64,000 nt of DNA from Brevibacterium luteolum (GTDB lineage: Bacteria; Actinomycetota; Actinomycetes; Actinomycetales; Brevibacteriaceae): positions 124,001 to 188,000 of the forward strand of contig NZ_JABEMC010000002.1 in NCBI RefSeq assembly GCF_013004595.1, read 5' to 3'. The notes beneath the pieces were generated by a model. That model made no database searches, was not told the origin of the DNA, and saw only the letters and a program-made list of their open reading frames with translations. The translations under genes and the position numbers were made by a program. The stretch's first letter is position 1. Each line of letters starts with the position of its first letter. This document shows, in pieces, positions 8,305 through 48,731 of this stretch.

Positions 8305-8372
8305 CACCGCGCCGGCGGTGCGGGCCTGCTCCGCGCCGCCGGCGGTCCACCTGATCCCAACCGATTGAGACG

Positions 8373-30540: not shown

Positions 30541-31944
30541 TCAGCCGATCGCGGCCTCGACATCGCTGAGCATGCCATCGATGCCGTGGACGAGCTCCGA
30601 AAGCTCCTCGTCGCCGGCAACCAGCGGCGGGGAGACCATGAGCATCGTCGCGCCGCGGTCGTCGCCGCGCAGGATCACGCCGGTGCGCTCGAAAGAGGCC
30701 GGCAGGATCTCGCGCAGCACCTTGAGCGACTCCTCGTCGGTGAGATCGCGGCCGGAGGCGCGGTCGGCCATGAGCTCGATAGCGTAGAAGTAGCCGGTGC
30801 CACGGACGTCCTTGACGCAGCGGTGGGCTTCAGCGAGCTTGTCGATGTCGGCGCGCAGGCCCGGCCCGCGGCGCTGGACGTTGCCGAGCACGTCCTCATC
30901 GCGCATCGCCGAGATGTTCGCGTGCGCGACGGCGGTGGCGACAGGGTGGCCGCCCCAGGTGGCACCGTGGGTGAAGACGCCGCCCTGCTCGGAGGCGTAG
31001 AGCTGGTCGACGAGCTCCTCACGGACGATCATGCCGCCGAGCGGCGCGTAGCCCGAGGTCGAGCCCTTGGCGAAGGTGATGATGTCGGGCACGACACCGG
31101 TCAGACCCTCACCGAACCAGTAGCCGAGGCGGCCGAAGGAGCAGATGACCTCATCGGAGACGAGCAGGATGCCGTACTTGTCGCAGATCGCGCGCAGGGC
31201 CTTCCAGTAGCCGTCCGGGGCGACGAGTGCGCCGCGGCCGTTCTGGACCGGCTCGGCGAAGATCGCCGCGATCGTCTCCGGGCCCTCCTCCTGGATGACC
31301 TTCTCGTAGGCCTGGATGATGTCGAGCTCCTCAGCCGGGCCGCAGTCGCCGGTGTAGCCGAGCGTGTTTGGCACCGAGCGCACACCGTCGAGCAGCGGCT
31401 CGAACGGGGCCTTGATCTTCGGCAGCTGGGTGACCGACAGGGCGCCCATCGTCACGCCGTGGTAGGCCATCTCACGCGAGATGAACTTCGTCCGCTGCGG
31501 CTGGCCCTGGCTGCGGTGGTACTGGCGGGCGAACTTGATCGCCGTCTCGACGGCCTCGGAGCCGGAGTTGACGAAGAAGGTGGTGCCCAGGTCGCCGGGG
31601 GCGAGCTCGGCGATCAGCTCAGCAGCGGCGACAGCCGGCTCGTGGACCATGCCCCAGTTCGAGGCGTAGGCGAGCTGGTGGATCTGCTTGGCACCGGCGT
31701 CGGCGATGTCGGTGCGGCCGTGACCCATGTTGACGCAGAACAGGCCGGCGAGCCCGTCGAGGTAGCGCTTGCCGTCGGTCGAGTACAGGTGGCAGCCGTC
31801 AGCGCGGGTGAAGACGGGGAAGTCGGCGTCGCGCTGGTCGCGGCGGGTGAAGTGCTGGAAGAGGTGGCGGCGGGCGCTGTCGCGCAGGCGGCCGGTGTCG
31901 GCTCCCGTCGCCGAGGTGGTGGTCGACGTGTCCATAGTCGTCAT
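30541..31944 (-). CDS. tpa: Class III aminotransferase, putative taurine:pyruvate aminotransferase
   Basis: YLDGLAGLFC, NSGSEAVE, AYHG, DEVICSFGRLG, PDIITFAKG; neighbours ald, MocR and xsc. Substrate inferred from context. Confidence 0.8.
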   Translation of the reverse strand: MTTMDTSTTTSATGADTGRLRDSARRHLFQHFTRRDQRDADFPVFTRADGCHLYSTDGKRYLDGLAGLFCVNMGHGRTDIADAGAKQIHQLAYASNWGMVHEPAVAAAELIAELAPGDLGTTFFVNSGSEAVETAIKFARQYHRSQGQPQRTKFISREMAYHGVTMGALSVTQLPKIKAPFEPLLDGVRSVPNTLGYTGDCGPAEELDIIQAYEKVIQEEGPETIAAIFAEPVQNGRGALVAPDGYWKALRAICDKYGILLVSDEVICSFGRLGYWFGEGLTGVVPDIITFAKGSTSGYAPLGGMIVREELVDQLYASEQGGVFTHGATWGGHPVATAVAHANISAMRDEDVLGNVQRRGPGLRADIDKLAEAHRCVKDVRGTGYFYAIELMADRASGRDLTDEESLKVLREILPASFERTGVILRGDDRGATMLMVSPPLVAGDEELSELVHGIDGMLSDVEAAIG

Positions 31945-32051
31945 GAGTGTCTCCTTAGCTGCTGGGCAGGTGCGGCAGGTGTGCCGCGGCTTCTGCGGGT
32001 GGCGCTGGGGCGCGGGCTAAGTCGGCGCTGACCGTGCCCATCTGTCCCTCG

Positions 32052-32172
32052 AGCCTAGAGACCGGCGTCACACTGCGGGAGAGCCAGATGCCGACGACTT
32101 CGGGGATCCAGCGTGGACCCCTCACCCGGGCACAATCTGGTGCTGGCGCAGACGCCGACCGGGGCAGACGCT
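32052..32172. promoter_or_regulatory. Divergent tpa/ald control region with back-to-back TauR-like operators
   Basis: Minus: CTGGATCCCCG-N13-CTGGCTCT (32111-32080), -10 TAGGCT (32057-32052). Plus: GTGGACCCCTC-N13-CTGGTGCT (32113-32144). Confidence 0.72.
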
Positions 32173-32297
32173 TCGAAGAGCAGGTGCCGCTCAGCGCTGA
32201 GCGGCACACCCGCGCCCGCGCCTACGGCACGGGCGCCGCCCCAGTCAGCGCTTGTGCCCCGGGCACGGCGGCCATATCCCAGACAAGGAGGATCAGC

Positions 32298-33416
32298 ATG
32301 AAGATCGGCGTCCCAAAGGAACTGAAGAACAACGAACACCGGGTCGGCTCCACGCCTGCCGGTGTCCACGAACTCGTCAGCCGCGGCCATGAGGTCGTCG
32401 TCGAATCCGGCGCCGGCACAGGCTCGGCGATGACCGATGAGGACTTCCGCGCAGCCGGGGCGACGGTCCTCGCCACCGCCGACGAGGTGTGGGAGGCCGC
32501 TGAGCTCATCCTCAAGGTCAAGGAGCCGGTGGCTGAGGAGTTCCACCGGATGCGGCCGGGCCAAGCGCTGTTCACCTTCCTGCATTTGGCCGCCAGCCAG
32601 GAGTGCACACGTGCGCTGATGGACAAGCAGGTCGATTCGATCGCCTATGAGCTCGTCCGTTCCCCCACTGGTGCGCTGCCCCTGCTGTTCCCCATGTCCG
32701 AGGTCGCCGGGCGGCTGGCACCGCTGGTCGGCACGCAGGCGCTCATGAGCCCGGCCGGTGGGCCGGGCAAGCTCATCGGCGGGGTCTCCGGGGTCCGGCC
32801 CACCCGCGTCGTCGTCATCGGTGCGGGGGTCTCGGGCATGAACGCGGTCGCAGTGGCCGTCGGTCTGTGGGCCGATGTCGTACTGCTGGACAAGGACATC
32901 GACAAGCTGCGCGCAGCCGACCGGATGTACCAAGGCCGCATCCGGACCGTCGCCTCGACGGCGTTCACGCTCGAGCAGGAGGTGCTCGAGGCCGACCTCG
33001 TCATCGGCTGTGTGCTCATTCCCGGCTCCCGCGCCCCGAAGCTCGTCACCAACGACATGGTCCGGCGGATGAAGCCCGGTTCGGTGCTCGTCGACATCGC
33101 CATCGACCAGGGCGGCTGCTTCGAGGACTCGAAACCCACCACGCATGCGGATCCGACGTTCACCGTTCATGACTCGATCTTCTACTGTGTGACCAACATG
33201 CCCGGCGCGGTCGCGCACACCTCGACGGTGGCGCTCAACAACGTCACCAGCCCGTATGCCACGCTCATCGCTGATCACGGTGTCGCCGAGGCCGCCAAGC
33301 GCAGCGAGGCGCTGCGCGCCGGCCTGTCGACCTACCAGGGCACGCTCACCAGCCCGCCGGTCGGCGCCGACCTCGGCATCGACTCGGTCACCCCTGAGGA
33401 GGCACTCGGCATGTGA
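32298..33416 (+). CDS. ald: Alanine dehydrogenase
   Basis: MKIGVPKELKNNEHRV, KVKEP, LFTFLHLA, PMSEVAGR, DIAIDQGGC, NMPGAV. Confidence 0.95.
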   Translation: MKIGVPKELKNNEHRVGSTPAGVHELVSRGHEVVVESGAGTGSAMTDEDFRAAGATVLATADEVWEAAELILKVKEPVAEEFHRMRPGQALFTFLHLAASQECTRALMDKQVDSIAYELVRSPTGALPLLFPMSEVAGRLAPLVGTQALMSPAGGPGKLIGGVSGVRPTRVVVIGAGVSGMNAVAVAVGLWADVVLLDKDIDKLRAADRMYQGRIRTVASTAFTLEQEVLEADLVIGCVLIPGSRAPKLVTNDMVRRMKPGSVLVDIAIDQGGCFEDSKPTTHADPTFTVHDSIFYCVTNMPGAVAHTSTVALNNVTSPYATLIADHGVAEAAKRSEALRAGLSTYQGTLTSPPVGADLGIDSVTPEEALGM

Positions 33417-33631: not shown

Positions 33632-35173
33632 ATGGCCGAAACACTCATCAGGATCGACCCGTCCTCGCCCACCGCTCTGTACCGGCAGGTGCAGGAGGCG
33701 ATCGTGGCCGGCATCGCCGCCGGCGTCTTCGATGTCAAGCGCCGCCTGCCCAGCTCCCGCGAGCTCGCCGCCGAGCTCGAAGTCTCGCGCAACACCATCA
33801 ACCTCGCCTACCAGGAGCTGCTCGCCCAGGGCCTGCTCATCAGCCAGGAGCGGCGGGGAATCTTCGTCAATCCCGACCTGACCCCCGACCAGCTCGAGGC
33901 TTTCACCGCCTCGGCGACGGACACCGGGCCCAACGCGCCGGTCGCGCGGATCGACTGGGCCTCCCGCCTGGCTCCGGCCGGGGATGCCAGCCTGCCGGAG
34001 CTCATCAAGCCGCCGGACTGGAGTCAGTACCCGTTCCCGTTCCTGCCCGGGCAGATCGAGCTTGCCCAGTTCCCGGCGCGCTCGTGGACCCGGTGTCTGC
34101 GCGAGGCACTGTTCCAGCCGCACCTGGCCCATGCGCTGCAGGACTCCGCCGGCTGCGATGACGACATGCTCGTCGAGATGATCCGCACCCGGCTGCTGCC
34201 CTCGCGCGGGGTGCATGTGCAGCCTGAGGAGATCATGATCACGCTGGGCACCCAGCACGGCCTCGACCTCATCGCCGAGGCGCTGCTGAAACCCGGTGAC
34301 CGTGTCCTCATGGAGGACCCCGGCTACCTCGACATCCGGCACATCTTGACCCGCCACCAGGCCGAGGTAGGCGAGATGCCCGTCGATGCCGACGGTGCGA
34401 TCGTGCCCGCCGACCTCACCGGGGTGCAGGCGGTGTTCCTCACCCCGAGTCACCACCATCCGACGAATGTGACGATGTTGATGGACCGGCGGCAGGCCGC
34501 ACTCGAGGCGGCCGCCGCCTCGGGCACGGTCGTCGTCGAAGACGACTACGATGCGGAGTTCCGCTACTCCGGCCAGCCCTCCCCTTCACTCAAGGCGATC
34601 GACCCGAGCGGCGACGTCGTGCACCTGGGGTCGTTCTCGAAGTTCCTCGCCCCAGGCCTGAGGCTGGGGTTCCTCGTCGGGCCCGCCGAGCTCATCGCCG
34701 CGCTGCGCCACTCGACTCGGTACACGGTGCGGCATGCGCCGGGGGTACTGCAGCGGGCGATGGCGCTGTTCCTCGACTCTGGTGACTATCACCGTACGCT
34801 GCGACTCAACCGGGAGCGGATGCGCAAGAAGTTCACGCTGATGTGCGAGGGCGTGGCCGAGCTGCTGCCGTTCGAGTCGCGGTGCCGGTTCCCGTCCGGT
34901 GGAGTGAGCCTGTGGTTCGAGGGCCCGGCCGAGCTCGATGCGCGCGTACTGCAGGAGGCGGCCTGCCAGCGCGGGGTGCTCGTGGAGCCGGGTGACTACT
35001 TCTTCGCCGCGACTGCTGAGCACGGGTTCGGCTCACGCGAGGTGCCGGGGCATCCGGGCGGGATCGAGCGCTACCCGTGGGCGACCCTACGGCTGGGCTA
35101 CGCCGCGATCCCGACCCGGGCGATCCGGCCCGGGCTCGAGCTCCTCGCCGAGGTCGCCCGAGAGGTGCTGTAG
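33632..35173 (+). CDS. tauR: MocR-family (GntR + PLP aminotransferase domain) regulator, TauR-like
   Basis: RLPSSRELAAELEVSRNT HTH, ITLGTQ, EDPGY, EDDYDAEF, GSFSKFLAPGLRLG; taurine gene context. Confidence 0.82.
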   Translation: MAETLIRIDPSSPTALYRQVQEAIVAGIAAGVFDVKRRLPSSRELAAELEVSRNTINLAYQELLAQGLLISQERRGIFVNPDLTPDQLEAFTASATDTGPNAPVARIDWASRLAPAGDASLPELIKPPDWSQYPFPFLPGQIELAQFPARSWTRCLREALFQPHLAHALQDSAGCDDDMLVEMIRTRLLPSRGVHVQPEEIMITLGTQHGLDLIAEALLKPGDRVLMEDPGYLDIRHILTRHQAEVGEMPVDADGAIVPADLTGVQAVFLTPSHHHPTNVTMLMDRRQAALEAAAASGTVVVEDDYDAEFRYSGQPSPSLKAIDPSGDVVHLGSFSKFLAPGLRLGFLVGPAELIAALRHSTRYTVRHAPGVLQRAMALFLDSGDYHRTLRLNRERMRKKFTLMCEGVAELLPFESRCRFPSGGVSLWFEGPAELDARVLQEAACQRGVLVEPGDYFFAATAEHGFGSREVPGHPGGIERYPWATLRLGYAAIPTRAIRPGLELLAEVAREVL

Positions 35174-35568: not shown

Positions 35569-37371
35569 TCACACGTAGTCCTTGTACTTGTCGAGCAGGC
35601 GGACTGGCTTCTTGAGCGCGTCGCGGCGGAACGGGTCGCCGAGCTCACGGTTGCACATGATCTCGATGACGGTCGTCTTGCCTTCGTTCATCTGCGCATC
35701 GATCGCGGCCTTGAGTGCGGGGCCGACCTCGTCGAGCTGGTCGACGGTGACGCCCTCAGCGCCCATCGCGCGGGCGATCTCAGCGTAGGAGTCGGTGTCG
35801 ATCTCGGCGGCGACGAAGCGGCGATTGTAGAACTCGACCTGGTTCTTCTTCTCCGCACCCCACTGGCGGTTGTGGAACACGACCGCGGTGACCGGGATGT
35901 CGTGGCGCACAGCTGTCATCACCTCGACCATCGACATGCCCCAGGCGCCGTCGCCGGCGTAGGCGATCGCCGGGCGCTCCGGGCAGGCCTTCTTGGCGCC
36001 GATGATCGTCGGCAGGGCGTAGCCGCAGTTGCCGAACGACATCGGGGCGAAGAACGACCGCGGCTCTTCGAAGCGCAGGTAGGAGTGGGCCACCGAGTTG
36101 ATGTTGCCGATGTCAGTGGAGACCATGACGCGTTCGGGCATGGCCTCCTCAAGAGCGCGCAGCACCTGGCGCGGGTGCAGCCAGTTGCCCTCTTCCTCTT
36201 CAGCTTCGGCGATCATGTCCTGCGAGAAGTCGTCGCGCTCCTCGGTCCACTCCGAAAGCTCCTTCTCCCAAGCGTCCTTCTCAGACCGGATCCGCTCAGC
36301 GCGCTCATCCTTGGTCTTGTCCGAGGCGACGTCGAGGCTGTTCAGCCGCTCGAGCAGCGCTGAGGCTGCCTGCTTGGCATCGCCGAGCACGCCGACCTCG
36401 ATCTTCTTCACGAGTCCGAGCATGTCGGCATCGGCGTCGACCTGGATGATCTTGGCGTCCTCCGGCCAATAGTTCAGGCCGTGCTGCGGCAGGGTGCCGA
36501 AGGGGCCCAGCCGGGTGCCGAGGGCGAGGACGACGTCGGCGTCCTTGATGAGCTTCATGCCGGCCTTTGAACCCTGGTAGCCCAGCGGCCCGCACCACAG
36601 CGGGTGAGAGGCGGGGAAGGAGTCGTTGTGCTGGTAGGAGTTGACGACCGGGGCGCCGAGGCGCTCGGCCAGGGCCTTGCATTCCTCGACTCCATCGGCG
36701 AACACGACGCCGCCGCCGGAGACTATGACGGGGAACTCCGCCTCGGCCAGCAGCGCGGCGGCACGGTCGAGAGACTCGGGCCCCCCGGGGCCGCGGTCGA
36801 TGATGGCCGGTTCGCGGATCTCGGTCTCGATCTCGCCGTAGAAGTAGTCGCGCGGGATGTTGAGCTGGGTCGGGCCCATCTCCGCCTTGGCGCGGTCGAA
36901 GCAGCGGGCGGTGAACTCGGCCATGCGGGCCGGGTTGGACACATGCCCCTGGTACTTGGTGAATTCCTGGAACATCGGCAGCTGGTTGGCTTCCTGGAAG
37001 CCGCCGAGGCCGATGCCGTTGGTGCCGGCTTCCGGGGTGACGATGACGACCGGGCTGTGGGCCCAGTAGGCGGCGGCGATCGCGGTCACGCAGTTCGAGA
37101 TGCCCGGGCCGTTCTGCCCGATGACCACGCCGTGGCGGCCGGAGGCGCGCGAGTAGCCGTCGGCCATGTGGGCCGCGCCCTGCTCGTGCACGACGGGCAC
37201 CAGCTCGATGCCGGCCGGGGCGAAGATGTCCATCGCATCCATGAATGCCGATCCCATGATGCCGAAGATCGTCTCAACGTCGTTGGCGACGAGGGTCTCG
37301 ACGAAGGCCTCCGACGGTGTCATCCGCTGTACGCCCTTGACGACCTCGCGTCCTGTCTTGGTCGAAGCCAT
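35569..37371 (-). CDS. xsc: Sulfoacetaldehyde acetyltransferase (ThDP enzyme)
   Basis: MTPSEAFVE, FGIMGSAFMDA, HEQGAAHMADG, FGNCGYA, GDGAWGMS...NRQWGAEKKNQ, ELGDPFRRDAL. Confidence 0.93.
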   Translation of the reverse strand: MASTKTGREVVKGVQRMTPSEAFVETLVANDVETIFGIMGSAFMDAMDIFAPAGIELVPVVHEQGAAHMADGYSRASGRHGVVIGQNGPGISNCVTAIAAAYWAHSPVVIVTPEAGTNGIGLGGFQEANQLPMFQEFTKYQGHVSNPARMAEFTARCFDRAKAEMGPTQLNIPRDYFYGEIETEIREPAIIDRGPGGPESLDRAAALLAEAEFPVIVSGGGVVFADGVEECKALAERLGAPVVNSYQHNDSFPASHPLWCGPLGYQGSKAGMKLIKDADVVLALGTRLGPFGTLPQHGLNYWPEDAKIIQVDADADMLGLVKKIEVGVLGDAKQAASALLERLNSLDVASDKTKDERAERIRSEKDAWEKELSEWTEERDDFSQDMIAEAEEEEGNWLHPRQVLRALEEAMPERVMVSTDIGNINSVAHSYLRFEEPRSFFAPMSFGNCGYALPTIIGAKKACPERPAIAYAGDGAWGMSMVEVMTAVRHDIPVTAVVFHNRQWGAEKKNQVEFYNRRFVAAEIDTDSYAEIARAMGAEGVTVDQLDEVGPALKAAIDAQMNEGKTTVIEIMCNRELGDPFRRDALKKPVRLLDKYKDYV

Positions 37372-37405
37372 TGCTCCCGACCTCCTTCTGGTCCGTGGAC
37401 TCCAA

Positions 37406-37481
37406 TGTTCCCGATAACGGAACAGTCCGTTCCGATTACTGTTGCGTGCTTCACTCTAGAGACCGAGCCCCCGATCGTCAA
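37406..37481 (-). promoter_or_regulatory. xsc sigma-A-type promoter with a downstream palindromic (probable IclR) operator
   Basis: Minus strand TTGACG (37481-37476), 17 bp, TAGAGT (37458-37453); palindrome TGTTCC-CGATAAC-GGAACA at 37406-37424. Confidence 0.7.
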
Positions 37482-37572
37482 CACATATTCCAAAATTGCG
37501 AACAGTCTGCAATACTTTTCGAGACAGAACGTTCGCTGGCGTCGCCGATCCGGGGCGCAGACTGGAGGAATC

Positions 37573-38445
37573 GTGAGCACCGCAGAGATCGTGGGGACCG
37601 CCGCCCATCCCGCCGCCGAGGCGGTGGAGACCGGCCGCGGACTCATCGGTGACACCCCGGTCCAGCGGCATCTGTCCCTCCTCGAGCTCATCGCCACCCG
37701 CGAGACGCCCTCGACCCTGCAGGGCCTGACGGAGGAGACGGGGCTGCCGAAGCCCACCCTGCACCGGATGCTCCAACAGCTCGAAGACGCCGGAATGGTC
37801 CTGCGCGACGGTGACGGCCGCCGGTTCCGCACCGGCCCGCGCATGCGCCGGATGGCTGAGCGGACCCTGCTGACCGATGTGCACTTCGGCAACCGCAACC
37901 GGATCCTCGCCGAGCTCGTCGCCGAGATCGGCGAGAGCTGCAACATCACCGCCCTGTCCGGTCACGAGGTCGTCTACCTCGACCGCGTCGAAACCCCCGA
38001 ACCCCTGCGCGTGACCCTGGCGCCCGGCTCGCGCGTGCCGGCCCACGCCTCGGCCTCGGGCAAGCTGCTGCTCTCCCAGCTGCGTCCGGCTGCCCGCCGC
38101 CAGCTGCTCGGCACCGCCCCGCTGCGCAGCTTCACCCCGAATACGATCACCGATCCCGAAGCGGTTGATGCTGAGGTGGCGCGCGCCGCTGAGCTCGGCT
38201 ACGGGATCGACAACGAGGAGTACCTCGCCGGGCTCGTGTGCGCCGCCGTGCTCATCCCGGATCCGTCCGGGGTCTCAAACCTCTGCGTGGCCGTGCAGGC
38301 CCCGGCCCTGCGGCTGAGCACCGCCGACTGCGTCGACCTGGTGCCGGTGCTGCGCCGGGCCGCCGAGCAGATCGCCACCCACAGCCACCCGACCGACGAC
38401 AGCAGCGCCGATCAGAGCAGCGACGATGCTGCCGCCACAACCTGA
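37573..38445 (+). CDS. IclR-family regulator divergent from xsc
   Basis: TGLPKPTLHRML HTH, GSRVPAHASASGKLLL, DNEEYLAGLVC; RBS GGAGG. Confidence 0.9.
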   Translation: MSTAEIVGTAAHPAAEAVETGRGLIGDTPVQRHLSLLELIATRETPSTLQGLTEETGLPKPTLHRMLQQLEDAGMVLRDGDGRRFRTGPRMRRMAERTLLTDVHFGNRNRILAELVAEIGESCNITALSGHEVVYLDRVETPEPLRVTLAPGSRVPAHASASGKLLLSQLRPAARRQLLGTAPLRSFTPNTITDPEAVDAEVARAAELGYGIDNEEYLAGLVCAAVLIPDPSGVSNLCVAVQAPALRLSTADCVDLVPVLRRAAEQIATHSHPTDDSSADQSSDDAAATT

Positions 38446-38455
38446 GGAGGCTCCC

Positions 38456-39448
38456 ATGACCCCGACGACACCGGACCTGACCGACACCTCATGCGTCCCG
38501 GACACCACCGTCAGCGCCCGCGAGGTCTTCGGCATCGACCGCGACATCGAGGTCCCGGCGTTCTCCGAGCCCAATGAGCTCGTCCCGGCGATCGATCCGG
38601 CCCACCACTTCGACCCGGATGTGACCCTGGCGATCCTCTCCGGCTACGCGAAGAACCGCCGCGTCCTCGTCCAGGGCCTGCACGGCACCGGCAAGTCCAG
38701 CCACATCGAGCAGGTCGCCGCCCGCTTGAACTGGCCGTGCATGCGCGTCAACCTCGACGGACAGATCTCGCGCCTCGACCTCATCGGCCGTGATGTCGTC
38801 ACCCTCGAAGACGGCAAGCAGATCACCGAGTTCCGTGAGGGCATCCTGCCGTGGGCCGTCCGCCGCCCGGTCGCGCTGCTGCTCGATGAGTACGATGCCG
38901 GACGGCCGGACATCATGTTCGTCATCCAGCGCCTGCTCGAACGCGAAGGCCGGCTGACCCTGCTCGACCAGTCCACCGTCATCGCCCCGCACCCGGCCTT
39001 CCGGCTCTTCGCGACTGCCAACACCGTAGGGCTGGGCAATGTCACCGGCATGTACCACGGCGTCCAGCGGCTCAACCACGCCCAACTCGATCGCTGGTCG
39101 GTCGTCGCCCACCTCTCGGCCCTCGACCCGGAGGTCGAGGTCTCGATCGTCGCCGCCCGCGTCCCGGGCCTGGAGCCGGAGACGATCGAGGCGATGGTGC
39201 GCCTGGCCAACCTCACCCGCGAGGGCTTCAGGGTCGGCGACCTCTCCACCCTCATGTCCCCGCGCACCGTGGTGACCTGGGCGGAGAACATCGAGATCTT
39301 CGGCGAGCGCGAACGCGCCTTCCGCCTGTCCTTCCTCAACCGCTGCGATGAGTACGAGAAGGGCATCGTCGCCGAATACTACCAGCGCTGCTTCGACGCC
39401 GAGATCACCGAGGCGGCACCCGGGTCGCTGACCCCAGCCGGAGCCTGA
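38456..39448 (+). CDS. CobS-like AAA+ ATPase (MoxR/CbbQ/NorQ clade)
   Basis: GLHGTGKSSHIEQVAARLNWPC, Walker B LLLDEYDAGRPD, FATANTVGLG, AQLDRW, MSPRTV. Confidence 0.9.
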   Translation: MTPTTPDLTDTSCVPDTTVSAREVFGIDRDIEVPAFSEPNELVPAIDPAHHFDPDVTLAILSGYAKNRRVLVQGLHGTGKSSHIEQVAARLNWPCMRVNLDGQISRLDLIGRDVVTLEDGKQITEFREGILPWAVRRPVALLLDEYDAGRPDIMFVIQRLLEREGRLTLLDQSTVIAPHPAFRLFATANTVGLGNVTGMYHGVQRLNHAQLDRWSVVAHLSALDPEVEVSIVAARVPGLEPETIEAMVRLANLTREGFRVGDLSTLMSPRTVVTWAENIEIFGERERAFRLSFLNRCDEYEKGIVAEYYQRCFDAEITEAAPGSLTPAGA

Positions 39449-39450
39449 GC

Positions 39451-41247
39451 ATGAGCACCCAGCCGACCACCTCCTCGGGCGCGGGTGCCCCGCTGACCGC
39501 CGACCCGACGACCGCGACCGGCGGGCCGCCGCCGGGTGCCCAGGAGAGCCCGCGGACCACGCGGCGGCGCGAGCACTTCCGCGAGCTCGCCGACGCCCAG
39601 GCTCGCGCTGCGACCGGCCGGCCGGGCCTGCATCACCGCGGCGGCAGGCTCTACGACGGGCCCAAGCGGCTGGCGGTGCCGGCCCTGCACCTCAATCCTG
39701 CACCCGAGGCGTCCCTTGCCTCCCTGCGCGGAGTCGCCGATGCCGTGTGGCTGCGGTGGGAGGCCTCGGACCGGCAGCTGCACCGGCGGCTGCGCCCGGC
39801 CGAACCTGCCGCCCGGACGGTGTTCGATCTGCTCGAGCAGCTGCGGGTCGAGTCGCTTGTGCCGGATTCAGCACCGGGAGCCCGGCGGAATCTGGCGCTG
39901 CGCTTCGGTGAGTGGTCTGATGAGTTCCTCGCCTCGGGTCTCATCGACACGAAGGTCGGGCTCATCATCTTCGCCCTCGCCCACACCGCCCGCTCGAGGA
40001 TCCTCGCTGTACCGATCCCAGCGCACCTGGAGGATCTGCTCGAGCACACGCGCTTCGATCTGGCCGAGAAGATCGGTGCGCCGCTGCTGCAGCTGCGGCG
40101 GGCCCGCCATGACCAAGGATCTTTCGCCGGCCCGGCTCGTGAGCTGGCGGGCATCGTCGCGGCCCTGGCCGAGGAGGCTGCAGCTGAGGATGAGCTGGCC
40201 CGCGGCGGGCGGAGCGGGCGCGCCCCGGAACTGGCGCTCTTCGATGAGGAGCGTGAGGCCGAAGACGACGATGACGACGGTGCGGTCGCAGGGCTCGGGC
40301 AGTCGCAGACGCTCAGTGCCGCCGCCGGGCAGTATGCGGTTTTCACCCGCGTCTATGACGAGACGACGACCGCCCTCACGCTCGTGCGCCCGGTCAGGCT
40401 GCGGGAGCTGCGCCGCCGGCTCGATGAGGCGATCAGCGAACGTGGGCTCTCAGTTCACCGGCTGACCCACCGGCTTGAGCGTGAGCTCGCCCGCGCCGGC
40501 AGTGACGGCTTCGATGCCGGGCAGCCAGAGGGCCGGCTCGATCGGCGCCGGCTCGCCCAGCTCATCGCCGCTCCGAGCCAGACGCTGGTCTTCGAGTCCG
40601 AGCGGATCGTCCCGCGGACCGAACTTGCCCTCTCTGTGCTCATCGACTGCTCCGGTTCGATGCGCACCCACCAGTTCGCCATTGCCTCAGCGGTCGACAC
40701 CTTCGCCCGGGCTGGTGATGCGCTCGGCATGAGTGTCGAGGTGCTCGGCTTCACCACCCGGTCGTGGACCGGTGGGCGGGCGAAGAAGGACTGGCAGCGG
40801 GCCGGTTCACCCCTGGGTGCCGGCCGAATCGCCGAACGCCGGCACATCGTGCTCCTCGACGCTGACGCCGGCTACCGGCGCGGGCGGGCAGGGCTCGCGG
40901 CACTGCTGCGCTCGGACCTGTACAAGGAGGGTCTCGACGGGGAGGCGCTCGACTGGGCGGCTGCCCGGCTGGCCCGCCGCGAAGCCGAGCGCAGGGTCGT
41001 ACTCGTCATCTCCGACGGGAGCCCCTCGGATGCGGTGACGGCCAACGCCAATGACGATGAGTACCTCGGCGCCCACCTGCGCCGCACCGTCGATCAGTGG
41101 ACGGCCAGCGGCCAGGTCGAGATCGCCGGCTTGGGCGTCGGGCTCGATCTGAGCGTCTTCTACGACCGGCACCAGACCGTCGACATCGACGCCGGAGACG
41201 CCAACGCCGTCATCACCGGGATGGTCGAGCTGCTCTCCCGGCGCTGA
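39451..41247 (+). CDS. CobT-like von Willebrand factor A domain protein
   Basis: YAVFTRVYDE, EGRLDRRRL, MIDAS LIDCSGSM, EVLGFTTRSW, KEGLDGEAL, VISDGSP. Confidence 0.88.
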   Translation: MSTQPTTSSGAGAPLTADPTTATGGPPPGAQESPRTTRRREHFRELADAQARAATGRPGLHHRGGRLYDGPKRLAVPALHLNPAPEASLASLRGVADAVWLRWEASDRQLHRRLRPAEPAARTVFDLLEQLRVESLVPDSAPGARRNLALRFGEWSDEFLASGLIDTKVGLIIFALAHTARSRILAVPIPAHLEDLLEHTRFDLAEKIGAPLLQLRRARHDQGSFAGPARELAGIVAALAEEAAAEDELARGGRSGRAPELALFDEEREAEDDDDDGAVAGLGQSQTLSAAAGQYAVFTRVYDETTTALTLVRPVRLRELRRRLDEAISERGLSVHRLTHRLERELARAGSDGFDAGQPEGRLDRRRLAQLIAAPSQTLVFESERIVPRTELALSVLIDCSGSMRTHQFAIASAVDTFARAGDALGMSVEVLGFTTRSWTGGRAKKDWQRAGSPLGAGRIAERRHIVLLDADAGYRRGRAGLAALLRSDLYKEGLDGEALDWAAARLARREAERRVVLVISDGSPSDAVTANANDDEYLGAHLRRTVDQWTASGQVEIAGLGVGLDLSVFYDRHQTVDIDAGDANAVITGMVELLSRR

Positions 41248-41285
41248 AGGCTGGTATGCCAAGCCGCCCGGCTCAGCCATGGGCG

Positions 41286-41339
41286 GCGTGCGGTTCAGGG
41301 TCAGCGCGTGCGGTTCAGGGTCAGCGCGTGCGGTTCAGC
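41286..41339. repeat. 20-bp tandem repeat (~2.7 copies) between convergent genes
   Basis: GCGTGCGGTTCAGGGTCAGC. Confidence 0.85.
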
Positions 41340-42197
41340 TCAGAGTTCGACCTGACGGTTGACGTCCTTGTACAGCAGGTACCGGAACGGTTCCGGTCCG
41401 CCGGCGTAGCAGGCCTGGGGGCAGAACGCGCGCAGTGCGAGGAAGTCGCCTTCCTGCACCTCGACCCAATCGTCGTTGAGCCGGTAGACACCCTTGCCCT
41501 GCAGAATGTAGAGCCCGTGTTCCATCTCGTGCGTCTCGGCGAACGGAATGGAGGCACCGGGTTCGAAGGTGACGATGTTGACATGCATGTCGTAGGCGAG
41601 ATCGGCCGGATCGATCATCCGGGTCGTCCGCCAGCGACCCTCGGTTCCCGGCATCGGAGAGGGCTCGATGTCGTTCTCGTTGCCGAACAGCGGCGCAGGC
41701 GTGTGGCCTGCGAGCGGCTGGTAGCGCTTGCGCAGCCAATGCAGCCGGGCCGCCTCGCCACCCACAGACGTCAGCGTCCACTGCGCACCTGCTGGCAGGA
41801 ACGCATACCCGCCGGGCCCGAGGCGGTGGGTCTCGTCATCAAGGGTCACCTGGACCTCACCCTCCATGAGGAAGAGGAAGCCCTCAACCTCCGGCTGGAG
41901 CTCCGGGGCGTCCGATCCGCCGCCAGGGGCGACTTCGAGGATCGTCTGCGAGAAGGTCACGGGGCCGCCGTGGGCCGGGCGGTTGAGCACCCACGCGCGG
42001 GTGTCGCGCCACTCCGGCAGCACGGTGGTGACGATATCGCGCAGCACCCCACGGGGGATGACACTATAGGCTGTGCGGATGACCGCCCGGTCGGTGAGCA
42101 GGTCGGTCTGCGGCGGGTGCCCGCCGTGCGGCGCATAGTAGGTGGCACCGGTGCCGGCGTGCGCCTGCTGTGCGGTGAGTTCAGCGTCATTCATCAT
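41340..42197 (-). CDS. allE: (S)-ureidoglycine aminohydrolase-family bicupin, possibly bifunctional allantoicase
   Basis: YYAPHGGHPPQ, DMHVNIVTFEPG, ETHEMEHGLY, LRAFCPQACYAGG, YLLYKDVNR. Confidence 0.88.
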   Translation of the reverse strand: MMNDAELTAQQAHAGTGATYYAPHGGHPPQTDLLTDRAVIRTAYSVIPRGVLRDIVTTVLPEWRDTRAWVLNRPAHGGPVTFSQTILEVAPGGGSDAPELQPEVEGFLFLMEGEVQVTLDDETHRLGPGGYAFLPAGAQWTLTSVGGEAARLHWLRKRYQPLAGHTPAPLFGNENDIEPSPMPGTEGRWRTTRMIDPADLAYDMHVNIVTFEPGASIPFAETHEMEHGLYILQGKGVYRLNDDWVEVQEGDFLALRAFCPQACYAGGPEPFRYLLYKDVNRQVEL

Positions 42198-42274
42198 TGA
42201 ACCTGCCTTTCTCAAGTCCGTCGTTGAATTCGTGGGAGTGCTCGCGCGGCGATCGCTCGCCTGCCGATCTCACC

Positions 42275-43645
42275 TTAGTTCTCCTGGGCAGACAGCTGCC
42301 CGGTGCGGGCCAGTCCACGCAGCTGAGCCAGCGCGATGCCGGCAGCGGTGTTCACCTCGGCTGCGGAGACAGCTCCGCAGGCCAGGGCCCGCTCGAGGTA
42401 TCGGGCCAGCGCCTTGGCTGTGGCCGGCTCGTCGAGCACAGCGGAGTCCGTCCCGTAGACGTAGTTGCGCAACCGCTGGGCTGCGGAGCCGAAGCCTTCG
42501 CGGTAGAAGTGAAACGTCGCCAGGAAGCGGGTGGGCAGCTGGTGCGGATGCAGATCCCACCCCTGGTAGATGCCGTGCTGCAGGTGGCGGCGCACGAGCC
42601 GGGCATGCAGATCCCAGGCGGCATGCACCGCCTGCGGCTGGCCGATCGGCAGGATGTTCGTCGACCCGTCCGAGACGTGTACCCCGGTGCCGGCAGTCGC
42701 CAGCAGCATCTGCTGTTTGGCGAAGTCGGCGACCGGGTGGTCCATCGCCTGGTAGGCCGCGGCGATGCCAAGGGAAGCCGAGTAGTCGTAGGTGCCGTAG
42801 TGCAGCGAGGTCACGCGTCCCTCACCGGCGTCGAGCACCGCCCCGAGCGGAACAGTGCCGTCGGCAGCCTGGATGATCTGCGGGGTCTCGACCTGCACTT
42901 CGAAGCCGATCGCACCCTCGGAGAGCCCGAGGCTCGATTCGATCGTCCGGCAGGCGGCGACCATCGCGGTCACCTGATCCGGCGTGCTGACCTTGGGCAG
43001 CGTGAGGACGAGCTGCTCGGGCACTGATCCCCAGCTGGTGACGAGCCGCGAGACGAACAGGTCAAGCGTGCGCAGTCCGCGGTGCCGGGTCGCAGCTTCG
43101 AGGCACTTGAAGCGGATGCCGATGTAGGCAGGCGCGGTCTCGACCCTGAGCCCGGCTACCGCCTCGTCTGCGGTCTGCTGCGCCCAGCGGTCCTCCTCGT
43201 CATCGGGGCGGTCGCCGAAGCCGTCTTCGAAGTCGATGCGCAGATCCTCGATGGGTTCGGTGCTCAGCTTCTTCTCCACCGCGGCAGCCAGCGCCTCGGC
43301 TTCGGCAGCCCGTGCGCTACCGTCGTCAGCGCCACCGGGCGAGGCGTCGGCGCGTGCGACGGGTCCGAGTGCGCTGCCGGCTGCGGTGATGACCTGTTCG
43401 GCCAGGCGGCGCATACCGCCGTGCTGCTCGACGGCCTCGAGGGCCTGCTGACCCCAGCGCGCCGGAAGCTCCGGGGTGTAGCTGTCGGCGGGAACGTAGA
43501 CGGTGTGCACGGCCTGCCGGATGTCCCGCTCGCCGGGGTATCGGCGTTCCAGCAGCTCGTCGGTGGCGGCCAGGCTTGCGTCGATGGAAGTCAGCACCTC
43601 GTCGGTGAGGGCTGCAGCGCCATCGGTCCTCTGTACTCCGCTCAT
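42275..43645 (-). CDS. CitE/HpcH-HpaI/malate-synthase-like TIM-barrel lyase (DUF6986-like), function unknown
   Basis: RQAVHTVYVPAD, DLRIDFEDG, LTLPKV, QVETP, HYGTYDY, QGWDLHPHQL. Confidence 0.78.
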   Translation of the reverse strand: MSGVQRTDGAAALTDEVLTSIDASLAATDELLERRYPGERDIRQAVHTVYVPADSYTPELPARWGQQALEAVEQHGGMRRLAEQVITAAGSALGPVARADASPGGADDGSARAAEAEALAAAVEKKLSTEPIEDLRIDFEDGFGDRPDDEEDRWAQQTADEAVAGLRVETAPAYIGIRFKCLEAATRHRGLRTLDLFVSRLVTSWGSVPEQLVLTLPKVSTPDQVTAMVAACRTIESSLGLSEGAIGFEVQVETPQIIQAADGTVPLGAVLDAGEGRVTSLHYGTYDYSASLGIAAAYQAMDHPVADFAKQQMLLATAGTGVHVSDGSTNILPIGQPQAVHAAWDLHARLVRRHLQHGIYQGWDLHPHQLPTRFLATFHFYREGFGSAAQRLRNYVYGTDSAVLDEPATAKALARYLERALACGAVSAAEVNTAAGIALAQLRGLARTGQLSAQEN

Positions 43646-43671
43646 GCGGGAACTCCTTCCGTTGCAGAGTC

Positions 43672-45060
43672 TCAATCTGCAGCCAATGCGGCTTCGACAA
43701 CGGCCTGTGCCACCTTCTCGGCGACCTCGGGGTCGAACACTGAGGGAATGATATACCCAGCATGCAGCTGGTCTGATGGGATGCACGCAGCAATCGCCTC
43801 AGCTGCTCCGACGAGCATGGCGTCGGTGATGTCGGGGGTCTCGGCGTCGAGGAGCCCGCGGAAGAAGCCAGGGAAGGCGAGGACGTTGTTGATCTGGTTC
43901 GGGAAGTCGCTGCGCCCGGTGGCGACGACGGCGGCGTGGCGGCCGGCTTCGACCGGATCGACCTCGGGATCCGGGTTCGACATCGCGAAGACGATGGCGT
44001 CGCCGTTCATGGCGGCGATGTCATCGCCGTCGAGCAGGTTGGGCGCCGAGACGCCGATGAAGACGTCAGCACCGGCGACGGCCTCCTTGAGCGTGCCGGT
44101 GAAGCCGTCGGCGTTGGTATTCTCGGCGATCCATGCCCGGTGCTCGTCGCGTTGCTCACGGCTGCGGTCAATCGCGCCGTCGCGGCCGCAGGCCACGATG
44201 TGCTGGGCACCGGAGGCGATGAGCAGGCGGATGATCGCATGACCGGCTGCGCCGACCCCGGAGACGACGATCTTCACGTCCTCGATGCGCTTGCCGACGA
44301 CGCGCAGGGCGTTCTCCAGTGCGGCGAGGGTGACGATGGCGGTGCCGTGCTGGTCATCGTGGAAAACCGGGATGTCGAGCTCTTCGCGCAGTCGCGCTTC
44401 GATCTCGAAGCAGCGCGGAGCGGAGATGTCTTCGAGGTTGATGCCGCCGTAGGCCGGGGCGATGGCCTTGCAGATGCTGATGATCTCCTCGGTGTCCTGA
44501 GTGTCCAGCGCCACCGGCCAGGCGTCGACGCCGGCGAACTGCTTGAACAGCACAGCCTTGCCCTCCATCACCGGCATGGCGGCTTCTGGGCCGATGTTGC
44601 CCAAACCGAGGACGGCTGAGCCGTCAGTGACGACGGCGACTGTGTTGCGCTTGATGGTGAGCCGGCGGGCATCCCGTCGATCAGCAGCGATAGCCTGGCA
44701 GACGCGGGCCACGCCGGGGGTGTAGGCACGGGATAGGTCATCGCGGTTGCGCAGCGGCGCCTTCGCCACCACTTCGAGCTTCCCGCCCAGGTGCAGGAGG
44801 AAGGTGCGGTCTGAGACCTTGTGGACGTCAACGCCATCGAGAGCGCCGAGAGCGCCTGCGACTTCGTCGGCGTGGGCAGCGTCGCGGGTATCGCAGCTGA
44901 CGTCGACGATGAGTGCGTGCGGGGTCGAGTCTGCAACGTCGAGTGCCGTCAGGACCGCTCCGGCATCCGCGACCGCCCTGACAAGATCAGAGGAGGCGGT
45001 CAGCCCAGCCGGTGCAGCCACCCGCAGTGTGATCGAGTATCCGGGGCTCGGTGCGGCCAT
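43672..45060 (-). CDS. NAD(P)-dependent malic enzyme with an N-terminal ACT-like domain
   Basis: [49 protein letters not shown]. Confidence 0.92.
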
Positions 45061-45084
45061 AGGAGTCCTTCCGTAGGGTTGAAG

Positions 45085-45120
45085 TTTCGTATGCCGAACA
45101 ATACCTTCTGTTATACGAAA
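45085..45120. promoter_or_regulatory. Paired 15-bp AllR/IclR-type boxes
   Basis: TTTCGTATGCCGAAC and TTCTGTTATACGAAA, starts 21 bp apart. Confidence 0.65.
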
Positions 45121-45236
45121 AAGCGACTAGCCGATAGACTCATCTCATAATCTTTTTCGCAGGCACGCCGAGCCCCGCCCCGCCGTTGAGCTCACCGGGA
45201 TCTCGGCCGACTTCTCCCCAGGAGGGACCTCGCACC

Positions 45237-46019
45237 ATGTCGCGCAACGCAGACGAAAAACCGCCCAATCGCCCCGCCAGGGGCGGCGTCCAGTCCGTCG
45301 AGCGCGCCTTTGACCTGCTGAACCTCATCGCAGACGCCGGAGGCCACACCACACTCAGCGAACTGGGCGCGGCCGTCGACCTGCCTATGCCCACGATCCA
45401 CCGCCTACTCAAGACCCTCGTGGGTCTCGGCGCAGTCCGCCAGCTCCCCGATCGAGGCTACGCCCTGGGCCCTGGCCTCATCCGCCTCGGGAACCTGGCC
45501 GGCGAGCAGCTCGGCGCCATCGCCCGCCCCTACCTACGCGTCCTCGCCCAGGACCTAGGCGAAAGCGCCAATGCCGCAGTGCTCGATGGTGACATGGTTG
45601 TCTATGCAGACCAGGTGCCGTCGCAGCAGCAGATGCGGATGTTCACCGAGGTCGGGCGCCGGACGCACACTCATGACACCGGAGTGGGCAAGGCGATCCT
45701 TGCCGGACTTCCCGCCGAGCAGGTCCGCCGTATCGTCGAGACCGCCGGCATGCCCACGCCGACGTCGCACAGCATCGGCACGATCGAGGAGCTCGAAGCC
45801 GAGCTGGAGCGGATCCGCCAGCAGGGCTATGCCGTCGATGAGCAGGAGCAGGAGCTCGGCGTCCGCTGCTTTGCCGTCGCCGTACCCGAGGCGCCGACAC
45901 CTATGGCGATCTCGGTCTCCGGGCCGACGAGCCGGGTGGATCAGAAGTTCGCTGACAAGGCGGTTCCGCTGTTGCAGGCCGCTGCCGCCAAGATCGCTGA
46001 GGAACTTCGGACCGATTGA
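45237..46019 (+). CDS. IclR-family regulator of the allantoin/glyoxylate cluster (AllR-like)
   Basis: GGVQSVERAF, PTIHRLL, MRMFTEVGRR, GVGKAIL, DEQEQELGVRC. Confidence 0.88.
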   Translation: MSRNADEKPPNRPARGGVQSVERAFDLLNLIADAGGHTTLSELGAAVDLPMPTIHRLLKTLVGLGAVRQLPDRGYALGPGLIRLGNLAGEQLGAIARPYLRVLAQDLGESANAAVLDGDMVVYADQVPSQQQMRMFTEVGRRTHTHDTGVGKAILAGLPAEQVRRIVETAGMPTPTSHSIGTIEELEAELERIRQQGYAVDEQEQELGVRCFAVAVPEAPTPMAISVSGPTSRVDQKFADKAVPLLQAAAAKIAEELRTD

Positions 46020-46136
46020 CCCCTTGACTCCCCATCCGGAGATGGCGGAAACTTGTAGCCACAAAGCGGAATAATAATTTCTCTTTGCGGAAGCTCAGCA
46101 GAGTCGTCGCTTCCTGCCACTGGAATGGAGAGTCCA

Positions 46137-46313
46137 ATGAATCCAACCACACCTGATCGCGCTGTCTCACCGGAAACGGCCCGCACGGCCGCTGAGGAGT
46201 TCGTCGTCGGCAGCGAGGACCCGGATTTCGTCCTGCGGCCGGCGGGCACTCCGCAGCGCCCGTTTGTCTGCTACGTGCCTGTCATCGGCGGCATGCTTCC
46301 GCAGTGCCGCTGA
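46137..46313 (+). CDS. Putative 58-aa small protein with a C-terminal two-Cys segment
   Basis: RBS GGAGAG, AT-rich upstream region, downstream hairpin; no family recognised. Confidence 0.45.
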   Translation: MNPTTPDRAVSPETARTAAEEFVVGSEDPDFVLRPAGTPQRPFVCYVPVIGGMLPQCR

Positions 46314-46373
46314 GGCAGCCGAGACGACGAGTAGCTGGTCAGACACTGCCACTCAGCGCAGAGCCGGCACAGA

Positions 46374-46412
46374 ACTGTGGCCCTTCCCGACAACTTCGGG
46401 AAGGGCCACAGT
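46374..46412. terminator. Perfect 17-bp stem-loop
   Basis: ACTGTGGCCCTTCCCGA-CAACT-TCGGGAAGGGCCACAGT. Confidence 0.75.
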
Positions 46413-46718
46413 GCATTCGGAACATGTCGCGCACGCGGCAGACGATCCTGGCGCTGCCCTTCGGCACGCTGCCCATCGACACCTCGGGACACCTCGGGAG
46501 CGGCTCCAGCCAGAAATGATTCCAACCCGGAGCGGCGCGCGAGCCCGTGACAGCCGGAAGCGCCCGGTCGCGGCACCGATGTGTCTGGCGAAGAGCTGAC
46601 AAGGCGACGAAGCGGCGCCGATCGACGAGGCACCCACACCGTAGCAGCCCATACAGATCCGCGACCCTCCCTGGAAGAGTCGGGGAGAACCGCGGTGCGC
46701 GAGGAGGACGCGGCCGGC

Positions 46719-47603: not shown

Positions 47604-47664
47604 GATGATCTCCTGTCAGAAAAGTTTGAGCTCGGTTGACGGGGGTGGATTGGGGAGGTCGCGT

Positions 47665-47991
47665 TCAACTGCCGCGGTAAGTCGTGTAGGCGAAGGGGCT
47701 TAACAGCAGGGGGATGTGGTAGTGCGCCTCGCCTGCCCTGACGCTGAAGTCGATCGTGACCGAGGGATGGAAGTGATCCTGTCCGCGACGGCGGAAGTAG
47801 TCCCCGACTGCGAAGACGATCCGGTAGTCACCCGGATCGAGGGCCTCTGGACCCAGTTCGCCAACGCGGCCGTCGTCGTTGGTCGTCGCGGTGGCGATCC
47901 GGTCTCCGGACGCAGTCATGAGGGTGACCTCGACGCCGCGCGCCGGCACGCCGAGCATCGAGTCGAGAACGTGGGCGGTAATATGACTCAC
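47665..47991 (-). CDS. uraH: 5-hydroxyisourate hydrolase
   Basis: HVLD...G.PA, TNDDGR, HYHIPLLLSPFAYTTYRGS. Confidence 0.95.
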   Translation of the reverse strand: MSHITAHVLDSMLGVPARGVEVTLMTASGDRIATATTNDDGRVGELGPEALDPGDYRIVFAVGDYFRRRGQDHFHPSVTIDFSVRAGEAHYHIPLLLSPFAYTTYRGS

Positions 47992-48482: not shown

Positions 48483-48502
48483 ACAACCTCCTCGTTGCCC
48501 GA

Positions 48503-48731
48503 TTTCGCACTACGGAATACACATTCCGTGTTGCGTGAAAGTGTGACCCAGGACTCCATTTCCTGTCAACCGAGCAGCCCTGAGGCGAGACCCCCTGCTC
48601 ATCGTTATCGAAACCGCCCGCACCGCACAACTGGACGCACGGCATACAGATGGCGACCCCGCATCCGCCAGCATTCTTATCCACACACTGAATTTATCCA
48701 TACACTGGACTTTTATTTTCACATATCGGAT
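48503..48731. promoter_or_regulatory. Two pairs of AllR/IclR-type boxes in the uraD/glxK divergent region
   Basis: TTTCGCACTACGGAA (48503) + TTCCGTGTTGCGTGA (48524); ATCCATACACTGGAC (48696) + TTTCACATATCGGAT (48717); each pair 21 bp apart. Confidence 0.65.

Follow-up and report, generated by a model that had tools for sequence, protein, structure and literature searches.

We report that a pair of genes related to cobS and cobT, located beside the sulfoacetaldehyde acetyltransferase gene (xsc) in a 64,000-nt stretch of Brevibacterium luteolum DNA (hereafter the window; the genome is 2.97 Mb long, in 21 contigs, with a completeness of 100%), belongs to a clade that is found together with one Xsc subclade, and at the same loci, in two phyla. 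From this association, which was observed directly, we infer with moderate confidence that the two proteins are a motor and an adaptor, derived from CobS/CobT and working in the style of CbbQ/CbbO and NorQ/NorD, which would mature or reactivate the Xsc enzymes of that subclade.

The xsc gene lies on the minus strand (35569..37371) and codes for a protein of 600 amino acids, which scored 1047.4 bits against the equivalog model TIGR03457, above the cut-off of 676.4. The Pfam domains TPP_enzyme_N, _M and _C, the three domains of a thiamine diphosphate (ThDP) enzyme, were all found and the GDG..N ThDP motif was seen. On the plus strand, beyond a spacer of 201 bp (37372..37572), three genes follow one another: iclR (37573..38445), a gene for a CobS-like AAA+ ATPase of 330 amino acids (38456..39448) and a gene for a CobT-like adaptor of 598 amino acids (39451..41247), which starts 2 nt past the cobS-like stop at 39448.

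Both proteins have the features of the CobS/CobT structural superfamily. The CobS-like protein carries the Pfam domains CobS_N, AAA_5 and CbbQ_C, with Walker A encoded at 38675-38698 and Walker B at 38885-38890 (plus strand). The CobT-like protein (Pfam CobT and CobT_C) consists of an N-domain, an acidic linker and a VWA domain with a MIDAS (an adhesion site dependent on metal ions) of the type DxSxS..T..D; its motif D399-C-S401-G-S403 is encoded at 40645..40659 (plus strand), where the window reads LIDCSGSM. The Walker A GTGKS and Walker B DE were invariant in 12 of 12 aligned CobS-like homologues, and the MIDAS residues D399, S401, S403, T436 and D522 in 19 of 19 CobT sequences of the same clade. 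A previous reading of the window made from the sequence alone had described a tight iclR-cobS-like-cobT-like operon, divergent from xsc, with intact Walker and MIDAS (DCSGS) motifs; the gene coordinates and the alignments agree with that description on both points.

Linkage of the pair to one Xsc subclade

Homologous loci were collected by a pattern scan with one genome per species, which gave at least 80 loci; those listed were all from Proteobacteria. A CobS tree was built from the window, the 80 listed loci and 10 proteins of unknown context (91 rows). It was split, with a support of 100 in the Shimodaira-Hasegawa-like approximate likelihood ratio test (SH-aLRT), into clade A, which has 36 rows and includes the window, and clade B, which has 55 rows, mostly from Alphaproteobacteria. 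The same division was obtained in a CobT tree of 46 rows (21 of clade A and 25 of the 55 of clade B, picked for a full-length open reading frame), again with an SH-aLRT of 100 and on a much longer branch (0.89 + 1.7).

xsc was present inside the fetched stretch in 21 of the 80 listed genome loci, all of them from clade A, and in none of the 55 clade-B loci. The Xsc proteins of these 21 loci were 74-80% identical to that of the window. Among the loci listed, all 26 clade-A genome loci came from xsc-bearing genomes, and in 22 of them xsc was within 10 kb of the pair. In the four others xsc was located elsewhere in the same genome: in Modicisalibacter about 19 kb from the pair, apparently on the same contig, and in one metagenome-assembled genome as a fragment at a contig end. 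Two of these four loci were set among TauXY-like, TauR-like and transporter genes.

As a second, independent sample, 80 loci from metagenomes were sorted into the clades by a FastTree phylogeny of the C-terminal half of CobT. Among the 28 loci of clade A, 13 contained xsc, 8 more contained only other taurine-type genes and 7 contained neither; five of these 7 were contigs shorter than 4 kb. None of the 51 clade-B loci contained xsc or taurine-type genes. One locus, L138, whose CobT was placed in neither clade, holds mocR, pta, xsc and a SoeABC-like enzyme. The sequence-only reading had expected an xsc-linked CobS clade distinct from the canonical one, and had taken homologues free of any xsc linkage as a sign against its proposal; the trees and gene neighbourhoods bear the expectation out, with linkage in 21 listed genome loci and 13 metagenome loci. 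The genes are thus kept beside the putative client gene across taxa, as is usual for client-linked AAA+/VWA pairs.

The layout seen in the window, ald-mocR-xsc / iclR-cobS-cobT, was also found in the metagenome loci L113 and L118. CobS-like homologues are known in Rhodococcus jostii, Amycolatopsis, Mycolicibacterium and Saccharopolyspora, and L113 and L118 may stand in for actinobacterial homologues outside Brevibacterium. On a Caballeronia plasmid the pair, annotated as 'AAA family ATPase' and 'cobalt chelatase', is about 2 kb from xsc-pta with two IclR genes in between. One or two tandem genes of the Lin0512 family (PF09585/TIGR02058) come directly after cobT in Azoarcus, Aromatoleum and one metagenome locus (L005:6041-6725, L015:12768-13452, L125:~9748).

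The distribution was also followed within lineages; genomes of close kin are not independent, so no p-value was attached to co-occurrence. Of 24 other Brevibacterium genomes, three carry xsc, and the pair was found in exactly these three, with about 1 kb between the two, in the layout mocR-tpa-pta-permease-(cobT, cobS, iclR) / xsc. Two Brevibacterium CobS-like genes were flagged for in-frame TGA codons (2 TGA); the flag was due to their own double stop codon and both genes are intact. Neither xsc nor a CobS-like gene was found in 16 other genomes of the same order, and no CobS-like gene was found in 400 other Actinomycetota sampled. The module is rare and patchy.

The Burkholderiales sample comprised 301 genomes, including one unpublished genome (G615, xsc-positive and without a CobS-like gene) on which no claim rests. 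xsc scored above the cut-off in 47 genomes and a CobS-like match at E <= 1e-60 was obtained in 14. Where Xsc reached at least 1020 bits, 11 of 12 genomes had a CobS-like gene, no more than 4 kb from xsc in ten cases and 29 kb from it in one; where Xsc scored lower, 33 of 35 genomes had none. In one of the two exceptions (G659) a contig end truncates the Xsc gene, and the CobS-like gene is below the cut-off and on another contig, and in the other (G555) CobS is above the canonical cut-off and also on another contig. CobS pieces were present in one of the 254 genomes without xsc, a fragmented assembly.

In an Xsc tree of 41 sequences, from which one partial sequence had been dropped, the 21 pair-linked Xsc formed one clade (SH-aLRT 100) together with the Xsc of G575 (L105), the twelfth high-scoring genome; the 19 unlinked Burkholderiales Xsc fell outside. 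The clade is marked by an insertion of 5-9 residues in the linker before the C-terminal ThDP domain. This forms an acidic loop, which in the window protein reads AEAEEEEGNW (residues 388-397, encoded at 36181..36210 on the minus strand), includes the invariant residues E393 and G395 and is a putative docking site for the adaptor. The indel columns were filled in 22 of 22 subclade rows and empty in 19 of 19 other Xsc; the loop has 14 or 18 residues in linked Xsc versus 9-10 in the others; E393 was invariant in 18 of 18 Xsc.

Further differences were found around the ThDP motif. Asn425, in TDIGNI-N-SV (36097..36099, minus strand), is replaced by Cys in Xsc without the pair, and linked Xsc have Ala472 instead of Val right before the GDG of the motif, as well as A521 and E523 shortly after it, in place of the Gly and (in 16 of 19) Asn of the others. 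Among all Xsc read, those whose locus also contains a CobS gene had Asn and the long loop (39 of 39), and the unlinked Burkholderiales Xsc from other subclades had Cys and Val (19 of 19). Given their location next to the GDG motif and within the PP domain, the subclade-specific positions would be expected to line the cofactor pocket. No solved Xsc structure was found in the PDB copy searched, in which the best match was BbmA (219 bits).

In a sample of 251 alphaproteobacterial genomes, 33 had xsc, with a best score of 971 bits. No Asn-type or long-loop Xsc was found among the 30 alphaproteobacterial Xsc fetched, of which 10 read Cys and 20 were more distant (about 47% identity) and unparsed by the patterns. 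The split between Asn/long-loop Xsc with the pair and Cys/short-loop Xsc without it provides a clean experimental handle.

The confinement of the pair to one Xsc subclade, with a loop and ThDP-motif changes of its own, points to Xsc itself as the client. A different explanation would be that the pair serves another step of sulfonate metabolism, such as sulfite handling (the TauE exporter or the maturation of a SoeABC-type sulfite dehydrogenase), Pta or the taurine dehydrogenase TauXY. Genes for these steps do adjoin the pair in places: TauE comes directly after cobT in L023, L030, L042, L079, L125 and L127-L130, the SoeABC-like molybdoenzyme precedes cobS in L138, and TauXY genes flank the pair in L012, L073, L114, L122 and L131. 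None of them is constant, however. The window has the aminotransferase route, with no TauXY or TauE nearby, and the Variovorax loci contain only ackA-xsc / iclR-cobS-cobT. Other Xsc subclades release sulfite as well, yet 33 of 35 such Burkholderiales genomes have no CobS-like gene, and the presence of the pair tracks Xsc sequence features in 39 of 39 cases. We consider it unlikely that one of these steps is the target. The SoeABC-like set of L138 (L138:1878-6586), just upstream of cobS-cobT, consists of a molybdopterin subunit, a 4Fe-4S subunit and an NrfD/DmsC anchor.

The pair and cobalamin synthesis

In order to decide whether the pair is a cobaltochelatase, the whole 2.97-Mb genome was searched. 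CobN (TIGR02257) gave no match, and neither did CbiC/CobH (PF02570), the single corrin-pathway marker searched. No second CobS/CobT locus was found in the genome, the pair of the window being the sole one. The CobS-like protein scored 475.6 bits (475.2 in the genome search) against the equivalog TIGR01650, below the cut-off of 558.55, and the CobT-like protein scored 263.4 bits against TIGR01651, below the cut-off of 759.05; neither is a member of its equivalog family. CobN, the corrin-pathway marker and a placement among canonical CobS/CobT, all expected of a CobNST system, were missing. The pair is unable to serve B12 synthesis in this genome. The lack of any cobalamin role, which the sequence-only reading had assumed from 64 kb, is confirmed by the absent cobN, the scores below cut-off and the separate clade, and a genomic cobN dependent on the pair, its own counter-argument, was not found.

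Five proteobacterial genomes with a clade-A pair were searched for cobN as well. The gene was missing in Castellaniella and Aromatoleum and present in Variovorax, P. fluorescens and Paraburkholderia. In the latter three (L084, L085, L086) it is part of an operon in which cobW and cobN are directly followed by a ChlI-like AAA gene and a small VWA gene. As these two genes are in the cobN operon, CobN has a motor of its own there, and the cobalt chelatase of these species uses a Mg-chelatase-type motor rather than CobS/CobT.

The pair could still be seen as a genuine CobNST motor, engaged in cobalamin synthesis or corrinoid remodelling and located beside xsc by chance. Its homology to the solved CobS (9ujv_A, 438 bits) and CobT (9uka_G, 228 bits) speaks for this, as does the identity of 60-65% between the CobS-like protein and alphaproteobacterial CobS. 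Against it stand the genome without cobN or CbiC, the scores below the NCBIfam cut-offs, the separate clade in both trees and the relatives which either carry the pair without cobN or have other AAA and VWA genes for it; a linkage to xsc that recurs across phyla is also not due to chance. This explanation is hardly credible in general, and for the B. luteolum genome it is already refuted, unless cobN is located in unassembled DNA. In the control genome of Caulobacter vibrioides, CobS and CobT were both above the family cut-offs and no cobN match was obtained. Canonical (clade B) pairs may therefore also occur without CobN, a hint of a role other than B12 synthesis in Alphaproteobacteria.

Identities between and within the clades were compared by region, with L014 left out for its long branch. 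For three regions of CobS the values between clades were 0.50, 0.75 and 0.59, those within clade A were 0.59, 0.84 and 0.69, and those within clade B were 0.54, 0.87 and 0.67. For CobT, the identity between clades was 0.24 in the N-domain (0.48 within A, 0.39 within B), 0.31 in the pre-VWA helices (0.54 and 0.64) and 0.41 in the VWA domain (0.58 and 0.80). Judged by these identities, the adaptor has diverged and the motor has been conserved, which is the pattern that a change of client would produce.

Clade-A proteins are labelled 'cobaltochelatase CobS' in JGI records. cobS and cobT serve as markers of aerobic B12 synthesis, and clade A would be miscounted in genome and metagenome surveys of B12 producers.

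Regulation and surroundings of the locus

The control region between xsc and iclR was characterised by consensus matches only. A promoter-like site for xsc was found at 37481-37453 (minus strand), and overlapping inverted repeats of the GTTCC..GGAAC type at about 37407-37434 are candidate IclR operators. The likely start of iclR is GTG 37573, which is preceded by GGAGGA, and its product has both the HTH_IclR domain (43.1 bits) and the effector domain IclR_C (117.9 bits) of the family. For the cobS-like gene an alternative start exists at ATG 38426; ATG 38456 is likelier, because GAGGAGG is located upstream, overlapping the iclR stop, and because it gives a match to a CobS-like protein of Brevibacterium otitidis (P0001), which is 330 amino acids long and 97% identical.

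In many loci an IclR homologue at 53-61% identity separates xsc from cobS. Several of 20 xsc genes without CobS/CobT nearby are also accompanied by a divergent iclR, whose identity is 45-51%. This suggests that IclR is probably a regulator of xsc, behind which cobS-cobT have been placed in this subclade.

RNA-library contigs were available from four runs of one study, on a relative about 96% identical. One contig of 3,943 nt spans 37444-41277, from iclR through cobT, and separate contigs cover xsc. These contigs, which cannot prove transcription or a single transcript, give a weak hint of expression as two units. A GC-rich hairpin is located at 41264-41288, between cobT and the gene that converges on it, near the contig end at 41277.

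These arrangements also bear on the idea that the pair is a regulatory device which remodels the IclR repressor or otherwise controls the transcription of xsc. In its favour, many loci have iclR at the head of the operon that contains the pair, with overlapping or abutting reading frames. However, no iclR is found beside the pair in L005, L011, L015, L019, L025, L040, L042, L071 and L079, and a divergent iclR accompanies xsc genes that lack CobS/CobT. To our knowledge, the known AAA+/VWA pairs act on enzymes and not on repressors. A regulatory function of this kind seems very improbable.

On the other side of xsc the window contains pta (27431-28513, minus strand), an APC permease (28654-30261, minus), a class-III aminotransferase, Tpa-like (30541-31944, minus), the alanine dehydrogenase gene ald (32034-33416, plus) and a MocR-type regulator (33632-35173, plus), all assigned by NCBIfam and Pfam matches. 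Together with xsc, they make up a route from taurine to acetyl phosphate. These genes also adjoin the module in three other Brevibacterium genomes. Downstream of cobT, on the other strand, a cluster for purine and ureide catabolism occupies 41340-50192, with genes for a ureidoglycine aminohydrolase, a DUF6986 protein of HpcH-like fold, a malic enzyme, a second IclR regulator, a urate oxidase and a glycerate kinase. It is unrelated and is not conserved beside the pair elsewhere. A siderophore- or corrinoid-type ABC importer at 7318-11453, consisting of a binding protein, two FecCD/BtuC-like permeases and an ATPase, is likewise unrelated to the pair.

Proposed role and comparison with known systems

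In the mechanism that we propose, a hexameric ring of the CobS-like AAA+ protein would drive the CobT-like VWA/MIDAS adaptor, and the client would be Xsc and not CobN. The adaptor would dock on Xsc via its MIDAS face, by analogy with CobSTN, CbbQO and NorQD, with the acidic loop that contains E393 as the candidate site. Xsc would then be remodelled by ATP hydrolysis in the ring, which may either insert ThDP-Mg2+ while the enzyme matures or remove a cofactor that has been damaged, or has reached a dead end, in turnover. IclR would co-regulate the helper with xsc. A complex prediction for Xsc and the VWA domain (residues 375-598), made without controls, returned scores of 0.00 and 0.00 and is neither for nor against binding.

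Some modules also contain thiamine genes. Castellaniella, Paralcaligenes, Aromatoleum and P. fluorescens have an extra ThiG copy inside the module (ThiG regions L014:6995-9071, L010:6896-8986, L015:5586-6407 and L071:7084-8124). In the two Alcaligenaceae among them, Castellaniella and Paralcaligenes, a gene for a ThiO-like protein (glycine oxidase; 233.6 bits, just under the cut-off) lies beside ThiG. Two full ThiG copies were present in each of three genomes checked with ThiG in the module, and a single copy in two genomes whose module lacks ThiG.

The sequence-only reading had explained the need for a repair machine by the cleavage of ThDP by sulfite, the product of Xsc. Sulfite cleavage of thiamine spares the thiazole and destroys the pyrimidine half of the molecule. 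Degradation of thiamine by sulfite in solution is described in the part of the source available to us (PMC11206890). The additional genes of some modules, ThiG and the ThiO-like gene, instead serve the thiazole half. Extra thiazole synthesis therefore fits a general loss of cofactor better than cleavage by sulfite.

In a bolder version of the proposal, the pair would act as a reactivase that uses ATP to exchange the cofactor of a ThDP enzyme, and would be the first example of such a machine. The acidic loop (E393) would be gripped by the MIDAS face of the CobT-like protein, the ThDP site, with its subclade-specific changes (Asn425, Ala472), would be pried open by the CobS-like ring, and the cofactor damaged in sulfite-releasing turnover would be ejected, with the ThiG and ThiO-like copies of some modules resupplying thiazole; CobS/CobT would then be a general maintenance motor that can be re-targeted, with cobalt chelation as just one of its tasks. 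We put this forward tentatively, as a speculative possibility which may well be wrong in its full form.

Several observations weigh against a role of the pair on Xsc. The Xsc of Castellaniella defragrans has reportedly been purified in active form without any helper. The Xsc of genome G575 falls in the linked subclade, yet TIGR01650 detected no CobS anywhere in that genome, so that the helper is dispensable at least there and the dependence is not absolute; the xsc locus (L105, G575:C1:1493969-1511723) is an xsc-pta-yeiH-tauY cluster in a 3.2-Mb genome, and this Xsc has both Asn and the long loop. Neither a taurine gene nor xsc is present on the clade-A metagenome contigs L126 (16.5 kb) and L137 (7.3 kb); their pairs may have xsc elsewhere or another client. 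The pair in L126 is accompanied by genes for a family-III CoA-transferase, a NUDIX protein and PpnN, and that in L137 by genes for an arginase and a BBE-type oxidase. Finally, the linkage could partly reflect one mobile module that moves as a block: the cross-phylum Xsc identity of 74-81% fits block transfer, and co-inheritance would then inflate the counts.

Taken to its end, the last point would make the pair a passenger of a mobile xsc module, for example an unrelated stress or defence ATPase pair, or decaying genes. The patchy spread (0 of 400 other Actinomycetota, 3 of 24 Brevibacterium), the same Xsc identities and the ability of G575 to manage without the pair would all suit a passenger. 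But all clade-A members examined have uninterrupted reading frames and intact, invariant catalytic motifs, and the gene order varies, being divergent from xsc, convergent behind pta-xsc or with xsc 19-29 kb off, while the association persists. This persistence argues for selection over hitch-hiking, and we give little credence to the passenger explanation.

A motor and adaptor acting on Xsc would be a known design with a new class of client, and we regard this as somewhat more probable than the opposite. We know of no AAA+ helper for a ThDP enzyme. A literature search judged by title and abstract, which had older subscription literature outside its reach, found no work linking Xsc with CobS/CobT or with any AAA+/VWA pair. 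If the proposal is true, a ThDP enzyme would join the short list of AAA+/VWA clients (Rubisco, nitric oxide reductase, carbon monoxide dehydrogenase and the chelatases), and the cobaltochelatase motor would have been re-aimed by changing the adaptor alone. Taurine, isethionate, sulfoacetate and part of sulfoquinovose breakdown share Xsc as their common desulfonation step. Should this Xsc subtype require a helper, this would matter for the prediction and engineering of sulfonate pathways and for its heterologous expression.

Three groups of known systems can be compared with the pair. In the diol and glycerol dehydratases, an ATP-driven reactivase releases the damaged cofactor so that a fresh one can bind. 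The likeness to these reactivases is one of concept only, as they belong to unrelated protein families and handle B12 rather than ThDP.

CbbQ/CbbO, the Rubisco activase, and NorQ/NorD, which inserts iron into nitric oxide reductase, share with the pair the logic of motor, adaptor and client, a VWA/MIDAS adaptor and genes that adjoin those of the client. The CobS-like protein has the CbbQ_C Pfam domain and matches NorQ at E = 3e-11 and CbbQ at about 1e-10, so the relation in sequence is distant. They differ from the pair also in that the client proposed here is a ThDP enzyme, on which the action of the pair is putative.

The closest comparison is with CobNST. The motor of the aerobic cobaltochelatase has been solved (9ujv, 9uka and related entries), as stated in the available portions of two preprints (10.64898/2026.07.21.739949 and 10.64898/2026.10.09.757910); a text search of the available portion of the second returned no mention of absent CobN, Rickettsia or phage. 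According to the accessible part of the first, CobSTN is likened to CbbQO and NorQD, and the N and C domains of CobT hold CobN between them, next to the MIDAS and without contact to CobS (10.64898/2026.07.21.739949). The pair departs from CobNST in its genomic setting, without CobN or the CbiC/CobH marker and tied to xsc, in its scores below cut-off and separate clade, and in an adaptor only 24-41% identical to canonical CobT beside a motor 50-75% identical to canonical CobS. It agrees with CobNST in the whole domain set (CobS_N and AAA_5 in the motor; N-domain, acidic linker and VWA with MIDAS in the adaptor) and in the matches to 9ujv_A and 9uka_G given above. From these matches the expected architecture would be a CobS hexamer with one CobT, and the client would be held between the N and C domains of CobT, beside the MIDAS.

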